Source: Coprobacillaceae bacterium
GTDB taxonomy: Bacteria; Bacillota_I; Bacilli_A; Erysipelotrichales; Coprobacillaceae
Assembly (NCBI GenBank): GCA_963675515.1
Contig: OY776328.1
Location: 2,280,001-2,312,000 of the forward strand
DNA: 32,000 nucleotides
Reading direction: 5' to 3'
Under the pieces are notes generated by a model. That model worked only from the letters and a program-made list of their open reading frames with translations, did no database searches and was not told where the DNA came from. Positions 2,935-18,977 of the stretch are shown here, piece after piece. The position numbers and the translations under genes were made by a program. Every line of letters starts with the position of its first letter. Position 1 is the stretch's first letter.

Positions 2935-2948
2935 ATGTTTTTCTCCTT

Positions 2949-3905: not shown

Positions 3906-3948
3906 AATCCACCTCGATAAAATAATAACATCAATCACACAAAAACAC

Positions 3949-4165
3949 AAAAAAACGCCTCCAAAAAGAGACGTTGTAAACGCGATACCACTCTACTTGC
4001 CACCAGTTGACCTGATGACCTCTTTCACTGATAAGGGCAGTTACCCGAAAGTTATACTTGATTTCCAACTTTCCTCTCCAAAATGCGCTTGGGATTATTT
4101 TTGCCGCTGACCTTCCACCATCGTCAGTTCGCTTGAGACCGCCATAACCTTACTCTTTTTTTCAA
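3949..4165 (-). promoter_or_regulatory. Second T-box leader (dipeptidase-argF unit), specifier read as CGC (Arg)
   Basis: It has the same architecture as the 1644-1862 leader and is near-identical from the specifier loop to the terminator. The specifier CGC is the complement of 4085-4087. The T-box AGAGTGGTATCGCG is the complement of 3981-3994. The terminator plus T-run lies at 3949-3975. Stem I distal sequences differ from copy 1 but keep their pairing. Confidence 0.85.
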
Positions 4166-4177
4166 CGAGTTACATAT

Positions 4178-5808: not shown

Positions 5809-5884
5809 GCTTGAATAGCTCAGTTGGTAGAGCACTCGGCTGTTAACCGAGCGGTCGTAGGTTCGAGTCCTACTTCAAGCGCCA
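5809..5884 (+). tRNA. tRNA-Asn (GTT)
   Basis: Hand-folded cloverleaf: acceptor GCTTGAA/TTCAAGC, anticodon loop CTGTTAA, T-loop GGTTCGAGTCC, encoded CCA. Confidence 0.95.
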
Positions 5885-5888
5885 TTGG

Positions 5889-5964
5889 GGCCCGTTGGAG
5901 AAACGGTTAACTCACATGCCTTTCACGCATGCATTCACGGGTTCGAATCCCGTACGGGTCACCA
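5889..5964 (+). tRNA. tRNA-Glu (TTC)
   Basis: Acceptor GGCCCGT/ACGGGTC, anticodon loop CTTTCAC, T-loop GGTTCGAATCC, encoded CCA. Confidence 0.95.
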
Positions 5965-5976
5965 TTTAAATATTTC

Positions 5977-6052
5977 GGGGGTTTAGCTCAGTTGGGAGAG
6001 CATCTGCCTTACAAGCAGAGGGTCGGCGGTTCGAGCCCGTCAACCCCCACCA
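5977..6052 (+). tRNA. tRNA-Val (TAC)
   Basis: Acceptor GGGGGTT/AACCCCC, anticodon loop CTTACAA, T-loop GGTTCGAGCCC, encoded CCA. Confidence 0.95.
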
Positions 6053-6064
6053 TTTTATTTATAA

Positions 6065-6140
<76 letters not shown>

Positions 6141-6147
6141 TTATCAA

Positions 6148-6223
6148 GACCCGCTAGCTCAGTCGGTAGAGCATCTGACTTTTAATCAGAGGGTCAGGCG
6201 TTCGAGTCGCCTGCGGGTCACCA
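6148..6223 (+). tRNA. tRNA-Lys (TTT)
   Basis: Acceptor GACCCGC/GCGGGTC, anticodon loop CTTTTAA, T-loop CGTTCGAGTCG, encoded CCA. Confidence 0.95.
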
Positions 6224-6233
6224 TTTTAAATAT

Positions 6234-6316
6234 GCGGGTGTGGCGAAATTGGCAGACGCACCAGACTTAGGATCTGGCGGGTAACCGTGGGGGTTCGAGT
6301 CCCTTCACCCGCACCA
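6234..6316 (+). tRNA. tRNA-Leu (TAG), class II with long variable arm
   Basis: Acceptor GCGGGTG/CACCCGC, anticodon loop CTTAGGA, variable arm CGGGTAACCGTG, T-loop GGTTCGAGTCC, encoded CCA. Confidence 0.95.
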
Positions 6317-6500
6317 AACTAAAAATAACGGCTATTTATGGCCGTTTTTTCTTATAATTTTATATACCCGATATCCGATTTTTCGAACATTTTATAAATT
6401 TAAGAGCTGTAATAACATTGTACGATGTTGTTTTTGAAATTAGCCATAATAGGTGAAGGACACAATTCCAAAATTAGAATTGTGTCCTTCACAGAAATAT
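6310..6500. repeat. Junction 0 (attL-like): core copy 0 (6310-6350) plus conserved left arm of cassette A (6351-about 6500)
   Basis: The core is cgcaccaaactaaaaataacggctatttatggccgtttttt. The left arm tatatacccgatatccgatttttcgaac... continues to a 14-bp-stem hairpin GAAGGACACAATTC/GAATTGTGTCCTTC (6455-6490). It aligns over about 190 nt with 13596-13786 and over about 90 nt with 10231-10320. Confidence 0.85.
6328..6351 (+). terminator. Intrinsic terminator of the tRNA operon
   Basis: Hairpin ACGGC-tatttatg-GCCGT followed by TTTTTT. Confidence 0.8.
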
Positions 6501-6570
6501 TGGTAGTTAATATAATGATCCATTCTTAATAAGAACTCATCTGGATAGTCAACACTTTTTTAGACAATTT

Positions 6571-7350
6571 TTATAAGGACAGCCTGTATTGTACGGGTGT
6601 TTTGTAATTAAGGCTCCCATGCTTCCTTTTGTTGTTGAACCAGTTGACATAATCATACAGTTCCAATGACAATTCGTCGATACTGCGGAATTGTCGATTG
6701 AATGCGAATTCTGTTTTGAGTATTTTATACATTGATTCTGATACCGCGTTATCAATCGGTTTTCCTTTGGCACTCAACGATCTCTTGATTCCATGCAATG
6801 CCAATATCCCATCAATCATCTCGTTTTTGAACTCCGATCCTCGGTCTGAATGAAATATCTCGACATCACTGAGATCACTTTTTATATCGTTTAATGCCTT
6901 AATAACCAAGTTGGCGTCTTTGTTTTGACCACTAGATTTACCAACGATTTCACGATTGTACAAATCAATTATCAGACAAATATAGTTCCATTTTCCAGCC
7001 ACCTTGATGTAGGTCAAGTCGCTGGTTAAATATTGCATTGGCCGCTCTGCTTGGAATTTTCTATTGATCATATTTTCAATATCGTCATTATTTACTTTGC
7101 CATAATGCTTTGGTCGTTGCTTGATGGTGTATTTACTAATCAAGCCGTATTTGTCCATGATTTGAGCAATTTTTCTTCTGCTGGCAACCATGTTTAAATC
7201 ATCCAAGTCATCTTTTATCTTGCGTGTTCCATAATTCTTCTTGCTGTTTTTGAATGATTTTATTACTTCATCTTCAAGCTTCGAATCCACTTTACGCCCT
7301 TTGGGTTTGTAGTAGAGAGTTGCCCGAGAGATTTTCAAGACTTTGCACAT
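6571..7350 (-). CDS. IS3-family transposase OrfB (DDE domain), expressed as OrfAB fusion by -1 frameshift
   Basis: LTSDLTYIKV...IFHSDRGSEF...DNAVSES is an IS3 DDE pattern. The -1 frame stays open upstream of 7350 back to the slippery heptamer T TTA AAG (complement of 7422-7428) inside orfA, reading ...FKASGADNGTKRQVIFANKHKYSISAMCKVL. Confidence 0.9.
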   Translation of the reverse strand: MCKVLKISRATLYYKPKGRKVDSKLEDEVIKSFKNSKKNYGTRKIKDDLDDLNMVASRRKIAQIMDKYGLISKYTIKQRPKHYGKVNNDDIENMINRKFQAERPMQYLTSDLTYIKVAGKWNYICLIIDLYNREIVGKSSGQNKDANLVIKALNDIKSDLSDVEIFHSDRGSEFKNEMIDGILALHGIKRSLSAKGKPIDNAVSESMYKILKTEFAFNRQFRSIDELSLELYDYVNWFNNKRKHGSLNYKTPVQYRLSL

Positions 7351-7385
7351 AGCGCTGATAGAGTATTTGTGTTTATTGGCAAAGA

Positions 7386-7679
7386 TTACTTGTCTTTTCG
7401 TCCCATTATCAGCGCCGCTTGCTTTAAAATATCATTTTCCATCTTCAGTCGTTCGTTTTCTTTTTGGAGCTTGATAAGCGCCTTGTCATGATCTGATCGA
7501 TTGTCGGCTTCAGTAAACGAACCCGTGTCATTGAAGCGTTTAACCCATTTATTGAACGCTGAAGCTGTCAAATCGTATTCACGGATTATTTCCGCTCTGG
7601 GTTTCCCATTGTTGTAAAGTTGAACCATTTTGATTCTGAATTCATCGGTGTAAGTACGTTTAGGTCTGCGTTTTGTCAT
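7386..7679 (-). CDS. IS3-family transposase OrfA (HTH)
   Basis: MTKRRPKRTYTDEFRIKMVQLYNNGKPRAEIIREYDLTASAFNKWVKRF plus a leucine-zipper-like C-terminus. The start is set at the ATG (complement of 7677-7679) with a GGAGGATAT RBS. Confidence 0.9.
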   Translation of the reverse strand: MTKRRPKRTYTDEFRIKMVQLYNNGKPRAEIIREYDLTASAFNKWVKRFNDTGSFTEADNRSDHDKALIKLQKENERLKMENDILKQAALIMGRKDK

Positions 7680-8021
7680 TTTGAATATCCTCCACAAATT
7701 TAACAAGATTTTATCATGTCCTTATAATCTTGTCTAATTTATTGTAACCTATCCAATCAAATAAAAATAAACACACATACCGTTTTAGATCTCATAGTAG
7801 TTTAGATAACGGGAAGTTTATTAAAGCCTTTTGTACTGGTAGTATCTGCAATTTAAAAAGTGTGATATAATCGCCAATCAATATAATCTCTTGGTCATTT
7901 TATAGTATATCCAGATTTGGCATAAAGCACTATTACATTCACATCCAAAGCTATGTGACTGATTATCAAATTATTACCATAAGCTAAAAGACACGTCTAA
8001 AACAATTACAAATTCTTTATA

Positions 8022-9056
8022 TTAATTGTCCCAATTTATCGAACCTTTCGTTGTTACGGTTTTATTACCTTTTATAATTGTACCAATTTCATAACACTTA
8101 ACACCTTTTTGAATACAGTGATCCATAATAACTTGCTTGTAGTCATTTTTAACAACCATAGCTATGCCGACACCTAAGTTAAAGGTTCTGATCATTTCGT
8201 CATTATCCACGTTACCAAACTGCTTGAGTTTTTTAAACAATTCACTAACTTGATAGTTATCTAAATTAATTTCAGCATCAAGATGATTTGGTAAGATCCT
8301 ATTTAGGTTCTCTTTTATTCCACCACCCGTTATATGTGCTAACCCTGTAATATTATTTGTTTCAAATAGATCTTTTAATACGCTATAATAGCATCTATGT
8401 GGTTCTAATATTGCGTCAATAAATGCTCTGCCGTCTACTTCTTCTTTGAGAATTTTCGGATACTTTTTCATAATGCTTCTTACAAGAGTGTACCCGTTAG
8501 TATGAACTCCACTCGACTCTAAAGATAACACGCAGTCGCCTTCAGAAATTTTAGAACCATCAATTATTTTTTTCTTATCTACAATGCCTACTATACTCGA
8601 AGTTAGTATGTATGTATCGTCGCCTAAAATACCAGGTTGTTCAGAAGTTTCTCCCCCTGTCAATACACAGCCTTCTTTTTTACAAGCATCGGCCATAGAT
8701 CTCACACATCTCTTGACTATGTCACTATTCATTTTACCACAAATGATTGCATCTTGAACTGTTAGAGGTTTTGAACCCATTACAATACAATCATTGATTA
8801 GATGATTAATCATATCGTAACAAACACCCTCGATACGGTCATATTCCATTGCTAACCCCTGTTTGGATCCCGGTTCCTCAGTTTTAAGTACAAGAACAGG
8901 ATTTTCGTATTCAGGGAATTTAATGTCATACAAAGATGAAAAAGCTCCCACTTTATTTAGAACTCTTTTTTCATCAGTTTCTAAATCTTTGGCCATCGCC
9001 TTTTTTGTTTGGTTGGCTAAATCAATATTAACATCATACTTCATTTTCTCACTCAT
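8022..9056 (-). CDS. PurM (AIR synthase) superfamily protein, divergent paralog
   Basis: It is collinear with PurM throughout (INDCIVMGSKPL, GGETSEQPG, SSGVHTNGYTLVR, HITGGGIKENLNR, MIRTFNLGVGIAMVV). The canonical GTDGVGTK and FLDY segments read KTEEPGSK and VQDA. The start is set at MSEKMKYD (ATG, complement of 9054-9056) with a GGAGGAT RBS. The 38 upstream codons in the track were rejected. Confidence 0.8.
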   Translation of the reverse strand: MSEKMKYDVNIDLANQTKKAMAKDLETDEKRVLNKVGAFSSLYDIKFPEYENPVLVLKTEEPGSKQGLAMEYDRIEGVCYDMINHLINDCIVMGSKPLTVQDAIICGKMNSDIVKRCVRSMADACKKEGCVLTGGETSEQPGILGDDTYILTSSIVGIVDKKKIIDGSKISEGDCVLSLESSGVHTNGYTLVRSIMKKYPKILKEEVDGRAFIDAILEPHRCYYSVLKDLFETNNITGLAHITGGGIKENLNRILPNHLDAEINLDNYQVSELFKKLKQFGNVDNDEMIRTFNLGVGIAMVVKNDYKQVIMDHCIQKGVKCYEIGTIIKGNKTVTTKGSINWDN

Positions 9057-9206
9057 AATAATCCTCCATTGATACCTATTATTATAACGCCAATAGTTAA
9101 CCGTTTCCATAATTATTTGAAAATCGATAATATTTGTTACCGTAAAAATGGGTGTTAAGCTGTATATCACAAAAAATCATATATTCTATCATGTATTCTT
9201 CGTCTT

Positions 9207-9485
9207 CTATTTCACGCAACTATAAGGCATTGTTGCTCTACGTAGGTAGTGAAAAACGCAATTCATCATACGACAATTGCGTTTATCCAGACTAAAAAAA
9301 AATATATCTTCAAATTTCTTATCAAGTGCCACATATAAAACTAGGGCAAGTTTTGAAATTGTATTGAACTGCCCAGTTCCAATTGAACTTATTGTATTTC
9401 TAGAAACGCCGACGATTTCAGCTAATTTTTGTTGTGCCATGTTTTTTTCTAATCTTACCGGTTTCAAATTGTTATGAATAGTCAA
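9207..9485 (-). CDS. XRE-family helix-turn-helix transcriptional regulator
   Basis: NNLKPVRLEKNMAQQKLAEIVGVSRNTISSIGTGQFNTISKLALVLYVALDKKFEDIF is the short Xre/Cro HTH pattern. The start codon is TTG with a weak AAGGA RBS. Confidence 0.75.
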   Translation of the reverse strand: MTIHNNLKPVRLEKNMAQQKLAEIVGVSRNTISSIGTGQFNTISKLALVLYVALDKKFEDIFFFSLDKRNCRMMNCVFHYLRRATMPYSCVK

Positions 9486-9544
9486 ATTATCCTTTTTAAT
9501 TTAATTACCTAGAAGAGAAGTTTAGACGCATAAGCAAATAAAAG

Positions 9545-9823
9545 TCAACAAGTAACTATCGAACAAAAAAATATATACATTGGTCTCTTTTTGTTAAATA
9601 TTCGGTATAAACCAAAAAAGTAACCAGTCAAATATCCCCAAGTAACCGTAAGAAGCAAATATAATTCAGTTACTCTCCACTTAATCAAAGCAATAGCAAT
9701 TAATACTAAAATAACAAACAAAAATATTACAGTCCCGAATATTTATGCTTGATTTAACATAAATATTGAACCCTCATCATTTCTATTTTCCAAACTGTAT
9801 TTCAAGATTTCTTTTTTTGTCAT
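9545..9823 (-). pseudogene. Small two-TM membrane protein interrupted by an in-frame TAA (or a 26-aa ORF plus untranslated remainder)
   Basis: AGAGGTG RBS plus ATG (complement of 9821-9823) gives MTKKEILKYSLENRNDEGSIFMLNQA, then TAA (9743-9745). The same frame continues IFGTVIFLFVILVLIAIALIKWRVTELYLLLTVTWGYLTGYFFGLYRIFNKK. The position upstream of an Xre gene resembles small membrane protein/Xre pairs. Confidence 0.35.
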
Positions 9824-9882
9824 ATTAACACCTCTTTCCATTGTACATTTTTGTGGTATTGAAAATGATTGATAATACTACC

Positions 9883-10230
9883 TGATATTACCATTGATAT
9901 ACTAAATCCGGTTATTGAAAGAGAGAAGCACTCCCCACTACCCCGTTACGGGCAATAGCATTTCCCAGCTTATATACTGACTTGCTTGAGTCTAGTCGCA
10001 GTATGTGTGTCTTGTGGAATCACGGCCTTACTATTTCACCAAGATAGTTTTAAATGTAGGTTTTATCGCCATCATTTCAATGTTGCGAACCCATTTGGCT
10101 ATTCCAACTATTAATCAATAACCTATTCTATTTCCAATGATCTAAACGCAAAAAGTGTTGATTTTAATAATCAACACATGATTAATTACGATTAGAAAAT
10201 TGAAAATAGTTCGCATACGATGAAGCACTT
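9883..10230. repeat. Conserved non-coding right module, copy 1 (end of cassette A)
   Basis: By eye it is near-identical to 18125-18432 (a handful of substitutions apart from the last 18 nt). It is clearly homologous to 12649-12999. There are stops in all six frames and no ORF of 60 aa or more. Confidence 0.9.
10149..10177 (-). terminator. Minus-strand intrinsic terminator inside right module copy 1
   Basis: 9-bp stem GTGTTGATT/AATCAACAC with a 5-nt loop. On the minus strand it is followed by TTTTT. It is identical in all three module copies. Confidence 0.55.
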
Positions 10231-10320
10231 CGCACCATACTAACAACAACGGCTATTTATGGCCGTTTTTTTATTTTAACTTATATACCCGATATCCAAA
10301 TTGTTCGAACTTTTCATAAA
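10231..10320. repeat. Junction 1 (attP-like): core copy 1 (10231-10272) plus short left arm of cassette B
   Basis: The sequence is cgcaccatactaacaacaacggctatttatggccgttttttt followed by attttaacttatatacccgatatccaaattgttcgaacttttcataaa. The terminator hairpin is retained. Confidence 0.85.
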
Positions 10321-10325
10321 TACAA

Positions 10326-10357
10326 CCTAATAAAGAGCAAGGTTGTCCTTTATTAGG
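10326..10357 (-). terminator. Hairpin at the left end of cassette B (probable terminator of its minus-strand genes)
   Basis: 10-bp stem CCTAATAAAG/CTTTATTAGG with a 12-nt loop. A U-rich tract follows on the minus strand. It occupies the position held by the GAAGGACACAATT hairpin in cassettes A and C. Confidence 0.45.
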
Positions 10358-10499
10358 AGCCAGTCAATGTGCACTTTCTAAGTATTGTTGTAATTAAAAA
10401 TATAAGGGTTATAATAATATTTGATGACACAAACTAATCAATAACCCGATATTTATTCACTTTATCATATGATTTGCCTGCACCACAAAAAGATTATAG

Positions 10500-10727
10500 T
10501 CATTTGACATTTGTCATATAACATGAAAATCCAATTGCAAAAAAAGGCATTTCCTTATGTAATAATTTCATAATTTGATCATCGGTTAATGATGCTAACC
10601 ATGCATCGATAATGCTAACAATATAATTATTCTTACGTAAGGTTTCTGCCAAATATCCCATTCCAATTTTTTCTTCCGCTGTACGCTGTGAAACAGGTGC
10701 AACAGTACATAAAACTATTTTCCTCAT
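10500..10727 (-). pseudogene. B12-binding-domain radical SAM protein, N-terminal 75-codon fragment
   Basis: GGAGG RBS plus MRKIVLCTVAPVSQRTAEEKIGMGYLAETLRKNNYIVSIIDAWLASLTDDQIMKLL is a typical B12-binding rSAM N-terminus. It stops after 75 codons, and no CxxxCxxC core follows. Confidence 0.6.
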
Positions 10728-10765
10728 TTTCATCCTCCTTCCTGAACTGTCAAAAAAATACATTA

Positions 10766-11202
10766 CTATTTGATTCTTCTTATCATGTCTTTCATCCATT
10801 CAGGATACAATGGCGACTGCAAAATCTCTTTGGTAGTTAACCAAAAACATTCAGTATGTTCTTCACTTAAGGTGCATTGCCCTTCTGAACAACAGCACAG
10901 ATAAGTTACAGATAAGTTATTATTATCAATTGCGTTTTATCTGGTCGAATCGCTGAGTCAGCATGCAATAACTGTATATTGGTTATTATTAAATTTGTTT
11001 CTTCTCTAACTTCTCGTTCTAATGCTTCTTCTAATTTTTCTCCATATTCAAGTCTTCCTCCTGGAATATCAAACAAGTTCTCACAAGCATCTTCAAGATT
11101 TTCTTCAACAGATTTTTTTATTATCAAAATCTGTCCGTTTAAATTTTGAATAATTGCTTTTGTTGCTATCTTAAAATTTTGATTTCTATTATTATATATC
11201 AT
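10766..11202 (-). pseudogene. Nudix hydrolase inactivated by an 11-bp tandem duplication
   Basis: The Nudix box GGRLEYGEKLEEALEREVREETNL is present. acagataagtt is directly repeated at 10897-10907 and 10908-10918. Removing one copy restores a continuous frame ...IIITYLCCCSEGQCTLSEEHTECFWLTTKEILQSPLYPEWMKDMIRRIK ending at 10766. Confidence 0.8.
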
Positions 11203-11207
11203 ATTTA

Positions 11208-11726
11208 TTACCTTTCGCCCTTATATGGTTTGCCTATCCATGTACAAAGATAGTCAATATGCACAAGCTGGCCATCACACACTAAAATTTTTGAATAATT
11301 CGACAAATCAATGTTGCTTTTTAGAAACTTCATACAGTCTTCTTCATGTGTCAACAATGATTTTTTCCCAATTTTCCAATAATTAGTGAGATATGCTTGT
11401 GCAGCACAGCCCCCACCGCATATATCACTATATTTACAATCACTGCAATCTGGTATATCTTTATGGTATTAATTCCTAAGCTGCATATTTTGAAAGGGTT
11501 CCGATGTAATAATGTCAATTATATCTCCCTTAAGTAAATCTCCAACCTTAAAATCATGTAAATATATGCATGGAGAAATGAAAACTTCTCCTTCTGGGCT
11601 TATGGAGTGAAAACGCATAGATGTGTTTCCGCATGCGTAGGAATAACGTTTCTCATGCCCGACAAGTGAAGAAAGACGCGGCTCGGTAATATCAATCGTT
11701 TCACATTTATTAAGTAAGTATTCATA
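11208..11726 (-). pseudogene. Radical SAM maturase, SPASM-domain C-terminal fragment with in-frame stop
   Basis: The minus frame reads ...YSYACGNTSMRFHSISPEGEVFISPCIYLHDFKVGDLLKG...RN*YHKDIPDCSDCKYSDICGGGCAAQAY, a SPASM Cys pattern. There is a TAA at 11469-11471. The radical SAM core is missing because the 5' side ends at the MITE-like repeat. Confidence 0.7.
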
Positions 11727-11754
11727 TTAGATACTCTATTATCAATAAATTTTT

Positions 11755-11904
11755 TTGAATGACCACATGGCTCAGGTTGAGAATTTTAGTAGTGAAATGT
11801 CGAAATTTGGACGCTTAATAATCCAACAAATTTCAGCATTTCAGAACAGTTATCGCATTTTCGCAAACCAATAGAATTGCTGCCTGTGTTTTATGGTCAT
11901 TCAA
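11755..11904 (-). repeat. MITE-like 150-bp element, copy 1
   Basis: Terminal inverted repeats TTGAATGACCA(C/T)A lie at both ends. The body aligns in inverse orientation with 16527-16675. The flanks ATAAATTTTT and ATAAAATTTTT resemble a target duplication. Confidence 0.6.
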
Positions 11905-12419
11905 ATAAAATTTTTCATCGAACTGTCAAAAGTTGTTCTTGGATTTTCCAAAGAATATTTCTTTGCCCATTTTTTATAATTTTTATTAACAATATCTTTA
12001 GCTTGTTTAAAGTTATTATCCTCAAAAATTCTAATTAATCCGATCTCATCTTCAATAAACACATCCGAATTTGCCAATTCCAATAAGAACTGTGATGCGA
12101 GTTGCAAATCATTGCTTTCATATAGCAATACATCTCCACCAACATAAATGTCAAAATCTATATAATAATTGAAATATACACTAGCAACGCCAGAATTTCT
12201 ATGCATCATAAATCCCTTTACACCATCTTTTAAGAAACCTACTGACGGATTATATATTCTATTGATGGGCTTTGCAATTATTCTTGTAATTTCTTCAAAA
12301 TGTATCTCTTTAATACTTTCTTTATTTATGCAGTAAATCAATCCACCAGCCTCTAAATGTAAACTTGGAAATGAATTAGATTTTTCAATGGAAATATAAA
12401 TTTTTTCTCTTTTAGTCAA
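11901..12419 (-). CDS. Hypothetical protein (172 aa)
   Basis: TTG start with an AGAGGTG RBS 7 nt upstream. I recognise no family. Its stop codon lies inside the MITE-like repeat. Confidence 0.5.
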   Translation of the reverse strand: MTKREKIYISIEKSNSFPSLHLEAGGLIYCINKESIKEIHFEEITRIIAKPINRIYNPSVGFLKDGVKGFMMHRNSGVASVYFNYYIDFDIYVGGDVLLYESNDLQLASQFLLELANSDVFIEDEIGLIRIFEDNNFKQAKDIVNKNYKKWAKKYSLENPRTTFDSSMKNFI

Positions 12420-12648
12420 AATAACACACCTCTTTCTATATATTTAATTGATTGTAATCTTTTCAATATTGTAACACCACAAGTATAATAACGCCACATT
12501 AATCATATCCATTTACAGTTATATTTGTTATTTTACAAATTTTTAATGATTGATTACTGTATATCTAAAACATTTTTGAAATATAATTTTGTTATCGATC
12601 TCCATAGATATTTTTTGCATTATTTTGCAAATTAATAATAACATTCAG

Positions 12649-12999
12649 TGATATTACCATTAATATAAAAAAACTGGTCATTGAACGAGAGAAGCACTCT
12701 CCACTACTTAATAAGCAATTGCATCTCAGCTAATACGTTGACTTGCCTGCGACAGTACGATCACTGCTCTGACTCAGTCGCAACGTGTGTATCTTAGAAG
12801 TTTCAGCCCTACTACCTTGCCACGATAGTTTTAAACGTAGGTTTTATCGCCATTTATTTTATGTTGCGAACCCATTTGGCTATTCCAACTGTTAATCAAT
12901 AACCTATTATATTTTCAATGATCTAAACGCAAAAAGTGTTGATTTTAATAATCAACACATCATCAATCACGATTAGAAAATTGAAAATAGTTCGACAAC
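12649..12999. repeat. Conserved non-coding right module, copy 2 (end of cassette B), split by an IS remnant; its last 12 nt, following the 6-bp target duplication (13578-13583), are at 13584-13595
   Basis: The right two-thirds (12826-12999) is nearly identical to copies 1 and 3. The left third is diverged, with substitutions and a roughly 21-nt insertion (gcgacagtacgatcactgctc) that can form its own small hairpin. Confidence 0.9.
12930..12958 (-). terminator. Minus-strand intrinsic terminator inside right module copy 2
   Basis: It has the same GTGTTGATT/AATCAACAC hairpin and T-run as copy 1. Confidence 0.55.
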
Positions 13000-13577
13000 T
13001 GAGTATTCCGGCAGTTCAGAGCCACCTTGTCCGGAGTTGAGAGCCACTATGTCCGCCCCCTTAGAGCCATAAGTATAATTTAATAATTGCCACTCACGGA
13101 ACCACCTCTTCAGTAGTAAAATTGAAGCGTAGCCATTGTTCTACCATGCAACTACTAAGTAGGTGGTTTTTATACGAGAAATCAAAAAAATTCTTTAGAC
13201 GCGTTTTAAAATTGAAAGTCATCGATCCATTGTTTCAGCGCTGCATGTATCAAGAATACTGTCAGATATCCTTGAAATAATGGAGTCTAGGTGTAATAGG
13301 TACTCAACTATACTGTGCAGTCAATGTTAACCAGAGGGTTGGTATCAACGCTTGGGTGAAGATCCCGTTGCAAATGCAATACTTGATAGGATTATTAACA
13401 GTTCATATAACATCTTGTTACAAGATTCATCTATGAGGTAAGAATACTCAAAAATCAAATGATTATCGGTGAACCAATCATTGCTGGCTCTCGTTAATGG
13501 ACACCCCGGCTCTATAAAGCGGACAAAGGTGGCTCTAAACGAATGGACAGGGTGGCTCCGCCACACCGGAATATTCA
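13000..13577 (+). mobile_element. IS21-family element, internally deleted remnant (578 bp)
   Basis: - The ends are TGAGTATTCCGG... and ...CCGGAATATTCA.
- Both ends carry doubled subterminal repeats GAGCCACCNTGTCC, the multi-repeat ends typical of IS21.
- A 6-bp target duplication GACAAC lies at 12994-12999 and 13578-13583. The uninterrupted module copy 3 has a single GACAAC.
- Internally, only a tail reading WYQRLGEDPVANAILDRIINSSYNILLQDSSMR survives (about 13342-13443). It resembles the C-terminus of IstB-type helper ATPases. Confidence 0.75.
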
Positions 13578-13595
13578 GACAACGAGTAACCATAT

Positions 13596-13786
13596 CGCAC
13601 CAAACTAAAATCAACGGCTATTTAAAGCCGTTTTTTGCTTTCAATTTATATACCCGATATCCAAATTTTTCGAACTTTTTATTAATATTAAGCCTGTCAT
13701 AACATTGTATATTGTTCAAGTTTGAAACAATATATAATTGGTTAAGGACACAATTTCAATTAGAATTGTGTCCTTCATACAAATAT
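13596..13786. repeat. Junction 2 (attP-like): core copy 2 (13596-13636) plus long left arm of cassette C
   Basis: The sequence is cgcaccaaactaaaatcaacggctatttaaagccgtttttt followed by gctttcaatttatatacccgatatccaaatttttcgaac... It ends in the AAGGACACAATT/AATTGTGTCCTT hairpin (13744-13775). The terminator stem keeps its pairing through a compensating change (ACGGCT/AGCCGT). Confidence 0.85.
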
Positions 13787-14071
13787 TTAATTTAGTTTTC
13801 TATCTCTCCAAAGCGTAATAGCATTCAAAGTCAAGAAAACGAGCATAGTTAACAAAAACACGAGATAATATGATCTATTTTCATTAGTGGATGTTATCAT
13901 ACTAGTATCAATGTTCATAATATCAACTATTAAATAAATCATTATTAGAAGAATTCCAGAGAAAACGACAATTCTAGCGTGCAATAATTTTGCTATCTTC
14001 CCGAAAATTCTAAAAAAATCAAAAATTATCACTAAAATCAAAATGCATTCAACAAGATAAAATAATTCCAT
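13787..14071 (-). CDS. Hypothetical small membrane protein (94 aa, about 3 TM)
   Basis: The sequence is strongly hydrophobic. The RBS is weak. It is followed by the left-arm hairpin. Confidence 0.45.
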   Translation of the reverse strand: MELFYLVECILILVIIFDFFRIFGKIAKLLHARIVVFSGILLIMIYLIVDIMNIDTSMITSTNENRSYYLVFLLTMLVFLTLNAITLWRDRKLN

Positions 14072-14514
14072 AGTTATTTACTCACGAAAGTGACCTTTCC
14101 ATTAAGAAATCTTTCAAGCAGACTTCATTTGCATTTTCCTCGATTTTCGCATCTACAATACTAGCAATAATTGTGCGAAAATCACCATCAATTCCTTCAG
14201 TCATATATCATATACCAGCATGAACCGTAATCAAGTACACAAAGCATCAATTATTTCAGGATATTTAATAACATATGATACGAAATAGAACTTGATGTTG
14301 GTCCAGGAAAAAATTTAATTATAACTCCACACAGCACATAAGAAACAATACTTTGTTTGATAAGCAAAATCTTAAGAACCGTTTAATAGCATGTCTTTTC
14401 TTATTTTTGGCATAATCCTTTTTATAATCATGTGCAGACCATTACGGTAGCAAAAAACACCAACTTTGAAATCCAAATTTCTGAAACTCTTATGAATTCA
14501 ATTCAAGTTTTGTT

Positions 14515-15114
14515 TTAAGAATATCTTACTATTGTATGAGTATAAGCTACACCAACCGGAATTAAAAAAGGTATTCCTTGAACATTAATTCTATCACTAT
14601 ATCCAACTGTAGGATACGCTGCTTCTCCATTTATTAGATTGGTATCCACATATGAATGAATCCCAATATTCGGAAAATCAAAAGTTAACCGATATTCGTA
14701 TCCTTTAATCAGTTTTTCTTGTGGTGAAATTATCTTTTCGATTTTATTTGATGAGATTAATAATATCCCGTCTACATTAAACAATTCAAGTCTCTCTTCA
14801 CTTTGATTATATGTGATTGCGTTATAAAATTCATCCAACAAAAATATTTTTTCCAATTGACCCTTCGCATTGATTATTCCTAAGTATGATACTTCTCCTG
14901 TGCCGGTGTAATTCATCGAATTAGAATCATGTAATAACACATATGAAGTTTCAAAATGAAAGTTTCCAGATGAAAATTCAGACAATTCATTTTGAGTAAG
15001 TTTTCGATTATTATCAACAATTTGGTATGTCTTATATTCTTTCACTGCGAAGTACAAACAAAACGCTAACATTATCGAACATACGACCACTAACGACGTT
15101 TTAATCACTTTCAT
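14515..15114 (-). CDS. Hypothetical protein with N-terminal membrane anchor/signal (199 aa)
   Basis: MKVIKTSLVVVCSIMLAFCLYFAV is a TM or signal segment. Its ATG overlaps the upstream stop (TAATG at 15114), indicating translational coupling. I recognise no family. Confidence 0.6.
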   Translation of the reverse strand: MKVIKTSLVVVCSIMLAFCLYFAVKEYKTYQIVDNNRKLTQNELSEFSSGNFHFETSYVLLHDSNSMNYTGTGEVSYLGIINAKGQLEKIFLLDEFYNAITYNQSEERLELFNVDGILLISSNKIEKIISPQEKLIKGYEYRLTFDFPNIGIHSYVDTNLINGEAAYPTVGYSDRINVQGIPFLIPVGVAYTHTIVRYS

Positions 15115-15683
15115 TATCGATATACCGGAACAAACCTTTCAGCCGTTATCTGTATGGTTGAGAAGTAATAGGTATATTGATACTCACCGGTATAGTTGTC
15201 ATACACATCTGCACGATAGTATTTCCAATTGAAATCAGTATACACCCTCACTTTAGAATCCCTATTTTGATCAACGGATATTGAATAACCAAAATTTGTA
15301 CTCGTGGTATTAGAGACAGCTAGTGTTCCAGATACAGTTCCATATGTAATAGTAAATGATACCCCCACATTCACAGTCGAAGAAGTATTGAAGTAATAAT
15401 GATCAACCCGTCTCCAGACAGACGTTGATGGATGATATCCATTGTCATACCAACTTTTATATCCACTTGACAATAGAGTTGTAATAGAATGATAACTTGA
15501 CATCTCACTATAATCTTCAGGCATACTCATTGAAACTAAGTCGCCTTCTTTGTCATACGTTATGAAATTGGATGTTGACAATTCATTTGATGTATTCTCA
15601 ACAGCGCTGACCGAATCACACTGGAGTAGACAAAAATTAAACACAAGCAAAAAAACCACTAATATCTTTGTAAGCTTATTCAT
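15114..15683 (-). CDS. Hypothetical secreted protein (189 aa), Tyr/Ser/Thr-rich beta-type C-terminal half
   Basis: The start is set at MNKLTKILVVFLLVFNFCLLQCDSVSA (signal peptide) with an AAAGGAGA RBS. I recognise no family. Confidence 0.6.
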   Translation of the reverse strand: MNKLTKILVVFLLVFNFCLLQCDSVSAVENTSNELSTSNFITYDKEGDLVSMSMPEDYSEMSSYHSITTLLSSGYKSWYDNGYHPSTSVWRRVDHYYFNTSSTVNVGVSFTITYGTVSGTLAVSNTTSTNFGYSISVDQNRDSKVRVYTDFNWKYYRADVYDNYTGEYQYTYYFSTIQITAERFVPVYR

Positions 15684-15849
15684 AATTATCTCCTTTAGTA
15701 CCAAGGTTCACTGTGCATTGAAAAATAAATTATTACACCTTGAAATACTAATATATCTAATCAAATTTTGTAATTACTCGTTCATTGATTATTAATTGTA
15801 AGTTTGTGAAGTTATCAAGAGAATGTATGAAGCGTGTTACAAACACACT

Positions 15850-16461
15850 TTATTCACTATAGTAATACTCGGTATATAGAACTATGTTTCCATATCTTGA
15901 AGATCCATAGTATAAATCCGCAGTATACCTAACTGCCCCTGTGCGACCTCCATCAAGATATGAATACTTCGGGCTACTTATGTTGCTCAACCATGCATCA
16001 GCTATATAGCACGCAAGCTTATAATTTATTTGAGAATTTCGCATATAACTTATTTGGGTACCTGAAACGTTATAAGTTGTTGTAATAGAAAAGTATGTTG
16101 CCATGCCCCAAATATCTTTCGTTTTTGTTTTTGTAACTGTCGTTGCAGTAGCAGTTGCGGTTGCGGTTGCAAGCGATTGGAGTGTAAATAATTCAAAATC
16201 TACCGAATCTCTCAAACTGATGTAGTCAATTAGCTCCCTTTGTTGTTGAGCGACTTGACGGGTTATATTAATATAATCATCAAGTGAAATTTCCGATTCA
16301 TCGATAGGGAGAAATGTCATATCGACACCAAATTCTCCAACAATTTGATTAAAAGCTTCCTCGTAACTAACCATCTTAAGCGAACTTGATTCAGCATATA
16401 CATCAATATTAAACCCGAACATAATTGTAAAAAGTACTACAATACTAACTAATTTTTTCAT
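15850..16461 (-). CDS. Hypothetical secreted protein (203 aa)
   Basis: GAGGGGG RBS and signal peptide MKKLVSIVVLFTIMFGFNIDVYA. It has a central ATATATATATTVTKTKTK linker and a Tyr-rich C-terminal domain (YTADLYYGSSRYGNIVLYTEYYY) that loosely resembles the C-terminus of the 15114-15683 product. Confidence 0.6.
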   Translation of the reverse strand: MKKLVSIVVLFTIMFGFNIDVYAESSSLKMVSYEEAFNQIVGEFGVDMTFLPIDESEISLDDYINITRQVAQQQRELIDYISLRDSVDFELFTLQSLATATATATATTVTKTKTKDIWGMATYFSITTTYNVSGTQISYMRNSQINYKLACYIADAWLSNISSPKYSYLDGGRTGAVRYTADLYYGSSRYGNIVLYTEYYYSE

Positions 16462-16526
16462 TTGAATCCCCCTCTTTATTAAACAGAATATAAAACATTG
16501 TGAATCCTATTTTCTCATTCATAATT

Positions 16527-16675
16527 TTGAATGACCATAAAATACTGGCAGAAATTTTTTGGTTATCGCAAATACGGTGACTAATTTGAAATACTGAAAT
16601 ATATTGGTTTTTCAAGTGATCAAATTTCGACATTTCACTACAAAAATTCTCAACCTGAGCTATGTAACATTCAAA
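16527..16675 (+). repeat. MITE-like 150-bp element, copy 2
   Basis: It aligns along its whole length with the reverse complement of 11755-11904. The ends are TTGAATGACCAT and ATGTAACATTCAA. Track ORF 16445-16633 lies inside it and is probably spurious. Confidence 0.6.
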
Positions 16676-16810
16676 TTCTTAATAATAAGCAAAATAATGA
16701 TTGCAAAGCTATTTGAGTATCCCTTCAATAATTCATTCAATCACTAATATTATTTATTATGAGTGTTTCTCAATTTGCAATTTCAAAGCTAAGATAACAA
16801 AATTTTACCA

Positions 16811-17098
16811 TTACAAGCCCGTTACAATATCGGACAACATTTTTACATAATTCTCAAATTGCTCCCTGCCAAATTTTGTTAACTCATAGTTTGTTATAAT
16901 TCTATTTTGTTGCTTAACCTTATATGAGCTTATATATTCCCATTCCTCCAATTTCTTAAGCTGTACGCTTAAATTCCCATCCGAACATTCAGCCAGCATC
17001 TTCAAATCATTAAAATTTTTAGAAGAATCAATAAGTGAACTAATAATTACCAATCTCAATGGCAATGTAAATGCTTGAGGAATATTCTTAATATTCAT
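16811..17098 (-). CDS. Winged-helix transcriptional regulator (ArsR/PadR-like small wHTH)
   Basis: PLRLVIISSLIDSSKNFNDLKMLAECSDGNLSVQLKKLEEWEYISSYKVKQQNRIITNYELTKFGREQFENYV is a typical wHTH pattern. I prefer the ATG at 17098 over the GTG at 17110. It overlaps the upstream gene by 11 nt. Confidence 0.7.
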   Translation of the reverse strand: MNIKNIPQAFTLPLRLVIISSLIDSSKNFNDLKMLAECSDGNLSVQLKKLEEWEYISSYKVKQQNRIITNYELTKFGREQFENYVKMLSDIVTGL

Positions 17099-17765
17099 TT
17101 GATAATTCACTACTTCTTAAGTATATCCCCAGAATAATATAACCAACCGAAATTATCAAGTTGAACGCTATGGACCAAAACGGAATAGACATTGTATATA
17201 TGTAAACTTTCGCAGTAATTCCAACACTCTGTGCATACAACACAAACATTAAAAACGTAACGCACATCACAATGGCACCAGTTTGAAAACGCCTTCTACT
17301 ATAAGTAAAACTGATAACTGCATAAAGAAATAATATCAAATTAGCGATAACGTTAATATTTATGGATTGATTTATAACAATTATTGGATTGACATCACTG
17401 GTATAGTAAAGAAAGATCTTTGCGGCTACCAAGATCAACGGTAAAATAAATGTGATAAACATAAATAATCTGAGAAATCCTAAAAAATATAAATTTGAAG
17501 AATCCTTATACTTGTTTAGCAATTTCTTGAATTCTACGTAAAACCCCAAAAGCATCAACGCATCTATTACAAAGCCAAATAAAGCAACCTCGTTATACGT
17601 AAAAATCAGAAAGCTCGAAATTGTTAAGAAAATAAAGTTCACAAAATTGACAACCCCTAAAATGATAAATATTTTCCCTACTACATCACTCCTTTTTTTT
17701 GTCCTCTCAATAGAGTCACTAATTGTCCTAATTTGTTCAATGGCATTTTCAATATCTTCATTCAT
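17088..17765 (-). CDS. Hypothetical polytopic membrane protein (225 aa)
   Basis: GGGAGGA RBS and roughly six hydrophobic segments. It is translationally coupled to the wHTH regulator. Confidence 0.6.
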   Translation of the reverse strand: MNEDIENAIEQIRTISDSIERTKKRSDVVGKIFIILGVVNFVNFIFLTISSFLIFTYNEVALFGFVIDALMLLGFYVEFKKLLNKYKDSSNLYFLGFLRLFMFITFILPLILVAAKIFLYYTSDVNPIIVINQSININVIANLILFLYAVISFTYSRRRFQTGAIVMCVTFLMFVLYAQSVGITAKVYIYTMSIPFWSIAFNLIISVGYIILGIYLRSSELSNEY

Positions 17766-17819
17766 AATGATTCCTCCCGTAAAATAAATTTCCTAAAACA
17801 AAAAGATAACCAAGATATT

Positions 17820-17880
17820 CACTTTATAATATAAAGGAGTTTCTTACTTTATATTATAAAGTGAATATCCAATTTGTCAA
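17820..17880 (-). promoter_or_regulatory. Promoter with overlapping 17-bp perfect palindrome (candidate operator) of the membrane-protein/wHTH operon
   Basis: On the minus strand: TTGACA (complement of 17875-17880), 16-nt spacer, TATAAT (complement of 17853-17858). The inverted repeat is CACTTTATAATATAAAG (17820-36) / CTTTATATTATAAAGTG (17847-63). The -10 box lies inside one arm. Confidence 0.6.
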
Positions 17881-18099
17881 TATCAATATACAAATTTCTA
17901 AATAACCTTCAAATACGCGAAACATATCTTTTGCTTAAGAAAAATGAAAGTTCATCTGCAATACATGGGATATTACTCTCTAGCCATCACCAATAAAAAC
18001 TCAAAGAAAAATTTTTATCAATATCAAAAGCAAGTAATACCATTATCCATTTATTTGCACCTATCTGACATATCAAAGGTTATTTAAACTATAATTTCA

Positions 18100-18432
18100 T
18101 AAAAAAGAATTTGGTTACCGAAAAGGAGAAGTACTCCTCACTACCCCGTTAAGGGCAATAGCATTTCCCAGCTTATATACTGACTTGCTTGAGTCTAGTC
18201 GCAGTATGTGTGTCTTGCGGAATCACGGCCTTACTATTTCACCAAGATAGTTTAAATGTAGGTTTTATCGCCATCATTTCAATGTTGCGAACCCATTTGG
18301 CTATTCCAACTGTTAATCAATAACCTATTCAATTTTCAATGATCTAAACGCAAAAAGTGTTGATTTTAATAATCAACACATCATTAATTACGATTAGAAA
18401 ATTGAAAATAGTTCGACAACGAGTAACCATAT
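18100..18432. repeat. Conserved non-coding right module, copy 3 (end of cassette C), uninterrupted
   Basis: See copies 1 and 2. It contains TTTCAATG twice (18277-84 and 18334-41) and an inverted near-copy AATTGAAAA (about 18401-18409). The tail is gttcgacaacgagtaaccat. Confidence 0.9.
18350..18379 (-). terminator. Minus-strand intrinsic terminator inside right module copy 3
   Basis: GTGTTGATT (18357-65) / AATCAACAC (18371-79), with a T-run on the minus strand (A-run 18352-56). Confidence 0.55.
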
Positions 18433-18473
18433 CGCACCATACTAACAACAACGGCTTTAACGGCCGTTTTTTT
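18433..18473. repeat. Junction 3 (attR-like): core copy 3, followed by unrelated flank
   Basis: The sequence is cgcaccatactaacaacaacggctttaacggccgttttttt. After the T-run it reads gtgcccttttttcattgtggc, which has no similarity to the left arms. Confidence 0.85.
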
Positions 18474-18750
18474 GTGCCCTTTTTTCATTGTGGCAACAAT
18501 TTGGGAACATTTTTCAAAATTAGATAATTCGCCGTTTATATTTATTATGTAGATGTCAAAGAATAATAATACGAATCTGAATCAATGATAAGATTACCTG
18601 ATTCAATCCAGAATATGACCAAACAATAAATGAGTTTATAGATAATACATCTTGTAAACAAGTCAGCATTTTTACTGGCATAAATGGAGCAATGGAGTCA
18701 ACATTAAATATGAATATGATTATTGTGAAACAAGTCATGTTCAACAAATT

Positions 18751-18948
18751 ATGAGCCGAGCAAATTGCAAGTGTGATAAAGCGCCAATGGAACGCTATTT
18801 CAACACGATCAAAAACGAATATCCAACGATATTAACATATTAAACAATAAAGAGATGTCTCGAGGGATTAGCGAATCCAGTCATGTGAAATGTAACCACA
18901 AGCGGCTGCATTCATCCAATGACGGATTGCCACCAAGTATAGCACGAT
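18751..18948 (+). pseudogene. IS3-family transposase, C-terminal remnant with frameshift
   Basis: SRANCKCDKAPMERYFNTIKNEY matches the GNCxDNAPMExFF..LK.E motif. In another frame, ISESSHVKCNHKRLHSSNDGLPPS matches the YNhkRlHssLgy.sP motif. It differs from the IS3 copy at 6542-7755. Confidence 0.6.
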
Positions 18949-18977
18949 AAGAAAAATTAATACTTCATCCCCTGGTG

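Follow-up and report, generated by a model that had tools for sequence, protein, structure and literature searches.

Tandem accretion of islands without their own integrase is already described in three systems. In Streptococcus, the cis-mobilizable elements (CIMEs) are att-flanked, integrase-less islands that accumulate by accretion, as in islands of the ICESt1/ICESt3 type (Pavlovic 2004; Bellanger 2011; reviewed in PMC5704250). In Dehalococcoides, 15 of the islands found at ssrA have no integration module and were read by their authors as possible CIMEs (PMC3146451), and in the tycheposon islands of Prochlorococcus adjacent elements are separated by partial tRNAs (bioRxiv 10.1101/2020.12.28.424599). 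We analyzed a stretch of 32,000 nt from a Coprobacillaceae bacterium (GCA_963675515.1, contig OY776328.1, positions 2,280,001 to 2,312,000; hereafter the window, with coordinates counted from its first letter), in which a 12-kb segment downstream of a tRNA-Leu(UAG) gene is divided into three tandem units by direct repeats of the tRNA 3' end and its terminator. A previous inspection of these letters, here called the sequence-only reading, had recognized the array and concluded that its junctions matched no described element family, which was overstated considering the three systems above. To our knowledge, few mobile elements have been characterized in gut Coprobacillaceae (Erysipelotrichales). 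We read the segment, with a probability of about 0.55, as a composite island in which three CIME-like elements, none of them autonomous, accumulated in tandem by site-specific insertion, the integrase having acted in trans or having been lost.

Structure of the array and its integration site

Four copies of a core of about 41 nt had been placed at 6310, 10231, 13596 and 18433, and the pattern CGCACCAWACTAAMAWYAACGGCT indeed has four exact matches, at these positions and all on the plus strand, against 0.00 expected by chance from dinucleotide-preserving shuffles. The 41 nt correspond to the final 7 nt of tRNA-Leu(UAG) plus its trailer/terminator. All four copies continue into the same hairpin, with inverted stem arms AACGGC and GCCGTT around a short spacer, and into a T-run, being called terminator-like here. 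The cores bound three units of the same polarity (3.9, 3.4 and 4.8 kb), that is, n+1 cores per n units, and the order within the units is always the same: a left arm, then unrelated cargo, then a non-coding right module (RM) of about 330 nt. Sizeable open reading frames (ORFs) are found only on the minus strand in all three units. The segment is foreign in base composition, with 29-36% GC against 40-47% in the flanks.

The homology between junctions stops exactly at the core edges, which are the tRNA CGCACCA on the left and the T-run on the right. Within the core, the left part shows the variant T..C..AAC beside RM1 and RM3, A..A..ATC beside RM2 and A..A..AAT beside the tRNA, while the variants of the hairpin loop track whatever sequence sits to the right. 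This linkage of core polymorphisms to the adjoining arms is what a reciprocal conservative recombination inside the core predicts. Direct-repeat analysis, alignments and ORFs bear out the earlier anatomy in its three units of one polarity with conserved arms and minus-strand cargo, and the core-edge boundaries and arm-linked polymorphisms do so for its assignment of attL-like (J0), attP-like (J1 and J2) and attR-like (J3) junctions (Table 1). The same reading missed the splitting of RM2, the pseudogenization of cargo, the mosaicism of the RM and nine compensatory changes in it, all described below.

The left arm begins directly after cores 0, 1 and 2 and contains the motif TATATACCCGATATCC(A)RAWTTKTTCGAAC, which carries a 1-nt deletion in unit 1. 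It was recovered as direct repeats at 6296-6401, 10217-10322 and 13582-13687, extended to 6501 and 13787 in units 1 and 3, so that about 50 nt are common to all three copies and about 150 nt to units 1 and 3. A junction promoter on the reverse complement of this motif (TTCGAA-16/17-TATATA) was considered and discarded, since its -35 box is too weak for the promoter scan.

Syntenic relatives were reached via homologues of DegV, in one locus with 72% identity (L001) and in another with 64% (L002, a Coprobacillaceae metagenome-assembled genome, OY780959.1). The arginine genes, DegV and the cluster of six tRNAs are retained in the two loci, whereas the material after the tRNA-Leu is different. What lies to the right of J3 in the window aligns, in L002, with sequence beyond the tRNA-Leu trailer region, which shows that the 12 kb are an insertion relative to this genome. 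A credible empty site, as deduced from this alignment, would be tRNA-Leu followed by the core and GTGCCC.. (GTGCCCTTTTTTCATTGTGGCAAC). Taken with the junction anatomy, the alignment makes the repeated site-specific insertion at the tRNA trailer, as proposed previously, a reasonable interpretation.

The corresponding place holds its own repeats in both relatives. L001 has a 44-nt direct repeat (77% identity) of its own, different tRNA-Leu trailer (6534-6577 and 8748-8791), flanking a 2.2-kb unit with an ISL3 transposase and a GNAT gene on the strand opposite to the tRNAs. L002 has a second tRNA-3'-end-like fragment with a terminator 117 nt after tRNA-Leu (8633-8691, 8566-8609). As other material lies at the same place in each, beside a duplicated trailer or tRNA-3'-end-like fragment of its own, the tRNA-Leu site seems to have been a hotspot of repeated integration in this lineage. 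Two further observations concern these loci: L001 contains one more tRNA-3'-end-like fragment, GGATTCGATTCCCCACCAC, at about 6470-6500, and L002 has three tandem 11-nt repeats, GGCAACATTTT, after its second fragment, with an island beyond them that carries a resolvase and an IS66 TnpB.

Search for a recombinase

All 77 stop-to-stop frames of at least 45 aa between 6300 and 18600 were compared with Pfam. None matched the Phage_integrase, Resolvase, Recombinase, relaxase or Rep families, none has a primase, helicase or capsid domain, and no pseudogene fragment of an integrase or transfer gene is detectable in any of them. No recombinase hidden in short or broken frames was found in this set either. 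The only mobility domains are those of an IS3-family insertion sequence (IS) in unit 1 (rve, rve_2, rve_3, HTH_Tnp_1 and HTH_21). The absence of tyrosine and serine recombinases, relaxases and Rep proteins from the units, as reported by the sequence-only reading, is thus corroborated, with the IS3 transposase as the sole enzyme of that kind. This IS means that the units are not free of DNA-breaking enzymes; we regard it as an incidental passenger.

The right module

The RM copies appear as direct repeats at 9905-10271, 12830-13052 and 18108-18473, with 78-93% identity. RM1 and RM3 have 326 nt in common (91-93% identity) and RM1 and RM2 about 370 nt, and the 3' portion of about 160 nt is 95-100% identical across the three copies. 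No other part of the units is as well conserved as the RM. All copies end exactly at cores 1, 2 and 3. The earlier statement that the module abuts the next core holds for RM1 and RM3, and not for RM2, which is interrupted by a 578-bp insertion 12 nt before its core; with the insertion removed, RM2 is colinear with the other two. The copies form a mosaic: RM1 and RM3 are equal from column 41 to column 330 of the alignment, columns 211-330 hardly differ among the three copies, and RM2 equals RM3 over the 15 nt adjoining the core, which indicates that these copies or their ancestors have recombined.

The possibility that the RM is just a decayed integrase, which the sequence-only reading had named as fatal to its own proposal, or the remains of another gene, was rejected. 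Stops abound in the six frames of each copy, no Pfam family is matched at E<=10, and the indels between copies (1, 2, 3 and 21 nt) are not all multiples of three, so that the RM is not a dead gene. A 53-aa open frame of the RM had 0 matches among 1.84 billion representative proteins, a search without power because the frame did not retrieve itself. A known structured RNA was also discarded, no family of Rfam 15 being matched: at the gathering score the search returned nothing but tRNAs and T-boxes, and at E<=5-10 only noise.

In its 5' half, the RM folds into three or four hairpins, which RM1/RM3 and the divergent RM2 have all maintained. Compensatory changes on both sides affect nine base pairs; slid controls gave 0-2 such pairs, and the observed value was reached by 0 of 500 shuffles. 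Three of the nine pairs are consecutive, in a stem of 15 bp with a loop of variable size (8 to 29 nt). Several G-U pairs are possible only on the plus strand, while the consensus folding energy does not favor that strand (-76 kcal/mol against -89 for the minus strand). As the comparison comprises three sequences, effectively two lineages, this covariation is suggestive, not proof. The conservation of the hairpins by compensatory changes would imply some function via a single-stranded form, either RNA or single-stranded DNA (ssDNA), for instance of the type of a transfer origin (oriT) or single-strand origin (sso). In the 3' part, a perfect 9-bp hairpin reads as a minus-strand terminator, GTGTTGATT..AACAC-T5 being a candidate end of a short minus-strand RNA.

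Neither the promoter scan nor the reading of the junctions gave a convincing conserved plus-strand promoter for an RNA from the RM, and the complementarity of the RM to the core and flanks consists of chance 8-10-mers only. A search for arm-type repeats (10060-10330 and equivalents) revealed weak motifs only. A direct repeat, AATWGTTCG(A/C), lies on both sides of the core: one copy belongs to the RM, about 22 nt before the core, and the other, beyond the core, to the left-arm motif. The invariant part of the RM has three copies of TAATCAAYA. These motifs are tentative candidates for protein-binding sites. Nothing in these analyses speaks for the previous suggestion that the RM itself supplies part of the recombination function.

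Cargo and inserted elements

The three cargoes, listed in Table 1, are in different states of preservation and have been invaded by other elements. The IS3-family element of unit 1 is complete: its inverted repeats measure 26 nt, its target duplication is ATC (3 bp), and its transposase ORFs contain the rve domain. It resembles ISSag12 at about 80% over a short stretch, and sits 40 nt past the left arm. The insertion that splits RM2 has terminal inverted repeats TGAGTATTCCGG and CCGGAATATTCA and is flanked by a 6-bp duplication, GACAAC, at 12994-12999 and 13578-13583. By eye, it contains an IstB-like C-terminal fragment (..AILDRIINSSYNI..), which provides a candidate family label. A miniature inverted-repeat transposable element (MITE) is present in units 2 and 3. 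One of its ends was also seen at the 5' end of a Logan contig (L004, 1-31), probably as an assembly break point. Unit 2, at least, is probably inert by now, given the IS and MITE hits, the pseudogenization of cargo and the severing of RM2.

The unit-3 operon has a relative with 94% protein identity in SRR22315504 and SRR22315505; L004 and L005, the short Logan contigs that carry it, show no adjoining RM. The homology with the window ends at 18044, about 60 nt before RM3, and is followed by unrelated sequence and the MITE end. As the homology stops before the module, cargo and RM are separable. The L004 operon is devoid of the region corresponding to 15076-16410 of the window (1.3 kb, encoding two unknown proteins, of 196 aa and 203 aa, that are secreted), and has one called gene of 255 aa where the window has ORFs of 62 aa (16445..16633) and 203 aa (15850..16461). 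Upstream of the membrane-protein and winged-helix-regulator pair of unit 3 (17810-17880, minus strand), a promoter with 12/12 consensus positions, TTGACA-16-TATAAT, is overlapped by a perfect inverted repeat of about 23 bp, together probably an autoregulated operator. This inverted repeat accounts for the spurious Rfam matches to miRNA families.

Outside the segment, the window contains arginine biosynthesis genes, DegV, a transporter of the MFS type and a lactose/tagatose cluster. Two full-length T-box leaders occur in the conserved left flank, at 1660-1870 and 3964-4174 (both on the minus strand; 121 and 115 bits), upstream of an argC-like gene (584-1645) and of a pair with similarity to peptidase M19 and ornithine carbamoyltransferase (1945-3950), respectively. 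Between core 3 and the MFS gene (about 18750-18950, plus strand), an IS3-type transposase was recognized by eye from its C-terminal remnant, which is frameshifted (..DKAPMERYFNTIKNEY.., ..HKRLHSSNDGLPP..); tblastn gave no match between this remnant and the OrfB of unit 1.

Table 1. Coordinates of the features of the array and of its borders in the window.
Feature	Positions	Strand	Remarks
Six-tRNA cluster	5809-6316	+	ARAGORN, Rfam agrees; last gene is tRNA-Leu(UAG)
tRNA-Leu(UAG), integration target	6234-6316	+	ARAGORN; Rfam tRNA
Core copy 0, junction J0	6310-6350	+	attL-like (tRNA + core + left arm)
Left arm, unit 1	6351-6501	+	Motif TATATACCCGATATCC-GATTTTTCGAAC, then 19-bp inverted repeat at 6453-6492
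Complete IS3-family IS in unit 1	6542-7755	-	OrfA 7386-7706; OrfB 6571-7350
Unit 1 cargo	7756-9858	-	AIR-synthase-related protein 8022-9170; XRE-type helix-turn-helix 9207-9485; small membrane ORFs
RM1	9859-10230	+	Common with RM3 from 9905 and with RM2 from 9859; non-coding, structured
Core copy 1, junction J1	10231-10271	+	attP-like (RM1 + core + left arm 2)
Left arm, unit 2 (short form)	10272-10322	+	About 50 nt conserved; different hairpin after it
Unit 2 cargo, largely pseudogenized	10323-12624	-	B12-binding fragment 10500-10799; truncated NUDIX 10906-11202; SPASM fragment ~11472-11726; 172-aa unknown protein 11901-12419
MITE, ~160 nt	11748-11910 (unit 2); 16526-16665 (unit 3, inverted)		Terminal inverted repeats TTTGAATGACCA..
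RM2, main part	12625-12999	+	5' half is the most divergent copy; hairpin loop 21 nt larger
IS-derived non-autonomous insertion, 578 bp	13000-13577		Splits RM2 12 nt before core 2
RM2, final 12 nt	13584-13595	+	GAGTAACCATAT, identical to RM3
Core copy 2, junction J2	13596-13636	+	attP-like chimera (internal)
Left arm, unit 3 (long form)	13637-13787	+	Homologous to the unit 1 arm over its full length
Unit 3 cargo	13788-18107	-	225-aa membrane protein 17088-17765; winged-helix regulator 16811-17110; three signal-peptide/unknown proteins 14515-16461; 94-aa membrane ORF
RM3	18108-18432	+	
Core copy 3, junction J3	18433-18472	+	attR-like (RM3 + core + chromosome)
Ancestral chromosomal flank	18473-18520	+	GTGCCC..GTGGCAACAATTTGGGAACATTTTTC; aligns with the sequence after the L002 tRNA-Leu trailer region

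Search for a wider family

The collections searched were the GTDB representative genomes, the JGI metagenomes, IMG/VR, PLSDB and INPHARED, the pattern scans requiring an exact match. One RM 20-mer had 0 matches in the GTDB genomes and 0 in IMG/VR, a further RM 20-mer also had 0, and an RM 17-mer scanned in IMG/VR only gave 3 chance matches without a profile match. A gapped pattern of the RM 5' half had 0 matches in the JGI metagenomes and 0 in IMG/VR, as did the left-arm motif. The core pattern had 0 in IMG/VR and, among the GTDB genomes, matched only the tRNA trailer of L002 itself. Nothing relevant resulted from blastn of the RM and each cargo against PLSDB and of the RM against INPHARED, and nhmmer profiles of the RM and left arm recovered only core-like trailers in all fetched loci. 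The sequence-only reading had expected the repeats to occur elsewhere with different cargo and would have given up its interpretation otherwise; no such locus turned up in these collections at the sensitivity of exact patterns. The species seems to be represented by a single genome, and relatives in the flanking proteins are only 62-80% identical, with no DegV above 80% and no MFS protein above 63% identity. As the scans depend on exact matches, the genome is single and the relatives are distant, the absence of a family is weak evidence.

Origin of the array

In the accretion of CIME-like elements that we propose, the att site would be the 41-bp overlap of the tRNA-Leu(UAG) 3' end with the terminator hairpin, and in the circular form of each element RM, core and left arm would be joined in an attP-like region of some 0.45-0.55 kb. 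Recombination of the core of an element with the core of the chromosome or of a resident element would duplicate it, and n insertions would leave n+1 cores, in the order tRNA-core-left arm, internal RM-core-left arm and RM-core-chromosome; the layout predicted by this accretion is exactly as seen. The recombinase would most likely be a tyrosine integrase, in view of the length and identity of the core, its place at a tRNA 3' end and the inverted AACGGC/GCCGTT arms around a short spacer. Either a helper element or another locus may have provided this enzyme in trans, or it may have belonged to an element that has since departed. The conserved arms would be the cis-acting part, with the invariant 160 nt or so at the RM 3' end and the left motif of about 30 nt as candidate protein-binding arms.

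Several points weigh against this accretion. None of the three units contains a gene remnant of an integrative and conjugative element (ICE), an integrative and mobilizable element (IME) or a phage, although the classical CIME model assumes an origin from such elements, and derivation from an ICE or IME was seen neither in the units nor, at exact-pattern sensitivity, in the collections. There is no helper integrase in the 32-kb window, and the collections named above, within the limits of exact patterns, yielded no second locus, alternative array, empty site or arm-sharing element. The near-identity of the RM 3' halves and the mosaic pattern could reflect gene conversion between tandem copies instead of function, and the covariation is, as stated, suggestive for so few lineages.

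Two explanations do without mobilization in trans. The array could be fixed debris of three once-autonomous elements that inserted in turn with their own integrases, the arms being leftovers of deletion, which we consider unlikely. Three independent deletions would have had to erase the integrase, excisionase and mobilization genes without a trace and yet spare the same RM of about 330 nt and the same 50-150 nt of left arm to the base. CIMEs are defined as decay products of this sort (PMC5704250), and the cargo is indeed decaying, with unit 2 consisting mostly of gene fragments and unit 3 showing 62-aa and 203-aa ORFs in place of the single called gene of L004. The units have also received an IS3, an IS-derived element and two MITEs, one insertion severing RM2 from its core. 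The lack of a further copy in the scanned collections would also fit. However, arms with a 3' half of the RM at 95-100% identity are conserved well beyond what would be expected of unselected sequence beside pseudogenizing cargo, and the frames hold no integrase or transfer pseudogene. If the array is fixed debris, it would exemplify ordinary island decay at a tRNA hotspot. Alternatively, after one site-specific insertion, the population could have contained alternative alleles with different cargo between conserved arms, three of which were then stacked by RecA-dependent unequal crossing-over or by Campbell-type insertion of transformed or circularized DNA. This requires no recombinase, in agreement with its absence, the repeated RM-core-left-arm block of about 0.5 kb is long enough for RecA, and the RM mosaics show that copies do recombine. 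We consider it somewhat less probable than debris. Against it, an initial att-type duplication is still required, a population of alternative alleles is needed and none was found in the scanned collections, the left arm of unit 2 has only about 50 nt in common with the others, and the tidy core-edge boundaries with arm-linked core polymorphisms are not expected from homologous exchange.

The structured arm invites two other views. In one, ranking below homologous stacking and quite doubtful, RM, core and the left motif of about 30 nt would constitute the full cis apparatus of an undescribed family of recombinase-less cassettes, captured and moved at terminators of tRNA trailers by an enzyme encoded elsewhere. 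The hairpins would then act as RNA or ssDNA, in transfer, priming or the directing of recombination, and not as the usual double-stranded arm sites of an integrase. In the other, the least probable of all, the RM would be the active principle itself, a structured plus-strand RNA ended by the copied tRNA terminator, or an ssDNA site, directing a host or trans-acting enzyme to the tRNA trailer in a new class of cassettes that would resemble RNA-guided or hairpin-recognizing recombination systems. The conserved hairpins with their nine compensatory pairs and variable loop, the plus-strand G-U pairs, the good plus-strand terminator at the end of every RM and the lack of a match to any known RNA family, in what is the best-conserved part of the units, would be consistent with such an RNA; yet the folding energies and the promoter scan do not point to the plus strand, no loop is complementary to the core or flanks beyond chance, no partner enzyme or other instance is known, and the alignment has three sequences only.

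Should the units be moved in trans, the tRNA terminator would be a cassette-like gene-capture site in gut Coprobacillaceae (Erysipelotrichales), with a fully defined recombination substrate: the 41-bp core, the left motif of about 30 nt and the RM of about 330 nt. Were the arm to act as RNA or ssDNA, it would reveal how islands without an integrase retain mobility.

Comparison with known systems

The cassettes of integrons and of clusters of attC sites lacking an integrase (CALIN) are recombinase-less units in the same orientation, separated by a hairpin recombination site of conserved structure and variable loop. Such cassettes are single ORFs, mostly without a promoter, and their attC sites have R''/L''-L'/R' boxes. 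The units described here differ from them in being multi-gene (3-5 kb), with their own promoters and regulators and a repeated block of about 0.5 kb. The core hairpin, AACGGC..GCCGTTTTTT, has no R''/R' boxes (RYYYAAC/GTTRRRY), and neither an integrase gene nor intI/attI is found at the array ends. A system of the IS110 bridge RNA or of the IS200/IS605 palindrome-associated transposable elements does not agree with the data either, given that no such enzyme is present in the 77 frames and that RM-core complementarity is at the chance level; n+1 shared cores indicate conservative site-specific recombination with duplication of the core. Systems of these two kinds have a cognate recombinase or transposase nearby or in the family, with guide loops complementary to target and donor, or else subterminal hairpins at both ends and no target duplication. 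As for the classical tRNA-targeting islands with a tyrosine integrase, whose gene lies within the island beside one att site, no frame matches a PF00589-type domain and the arms adjoin the cargo ends directly.

In composite islands of the staphylococcal cassette chromosome (SCC) with pseudo-SCC elements at rlmH (orfX), recombinase-less cassettes also lie in tandem at one conserved site, between the same short integration-site repeats, and can be excised by Ccr recombinases acting in trans. Unlike in our array, the SCC target is the 3' end of a protein-coding gene, the recombinases are serine recombinases and there is no long conserved structured arm.

Tycheposons share with this locus the integration at a tRNA gene, the pushing along of older elements, the partial tRNA copies between elements and the accumulation of degenerate remnants. 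They come from a different phylum and habitat, and are defined by a tyrosine recombinase with replication or packaging genes, whereas here the partial tRNA and trailer repeats are present without any of the hallmark recombinase, primase, helicase or capsid domains in the 77 frames, and the repeat is mostly terminator with 7 nt of tRNA. The ssrA islands of Dehalococcoides are similar in being low-GC islands in tandem downstream of a small-RNA gene, with a direct repeat of the gene 3' end and extra conserved sequence beside it. Their target is a tmRNA with a 20-bp repeat, and not a tRNA trailer/terminator, and many sister islands contain a serine integrase module (DsiB), so that the helper is evident there and not here.

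The likeness to CIMEs is the closest. The array has direct repeats of the 3' end of the target gene as attL and attR, with core repeats at both ends of each element (four cores, three units), no integration or transfer genes of its own (no integrase, excisionase, relaxase or type IV secretion system in the 77 frames, and IS3 rve/HTH_Tnp domains only), and a head-to-tail stack at one site with chimeric internal att junctions; like CIMEs, it would move only via the integrase of a neighbor. CIMEs are recognizable deletion derivatives of an ICE or IME and lie next to, or are related to, such an element, whereas the units studied here show no such remnant, no helper within 32 kb and, in the collections scanned with exact patterns, no related autonomous element. 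The array works like a CIME array, and strict membership fails on ICE/IME derivation. It is unusual that all three units are integrase-less and without integration or transfer remnants and that they share a long, highly conserved non-coding arm of about 330 nt with structure-preserving covariation. Apart from this arm, nothing in the array departs from the textbook picture of tandem accretion.

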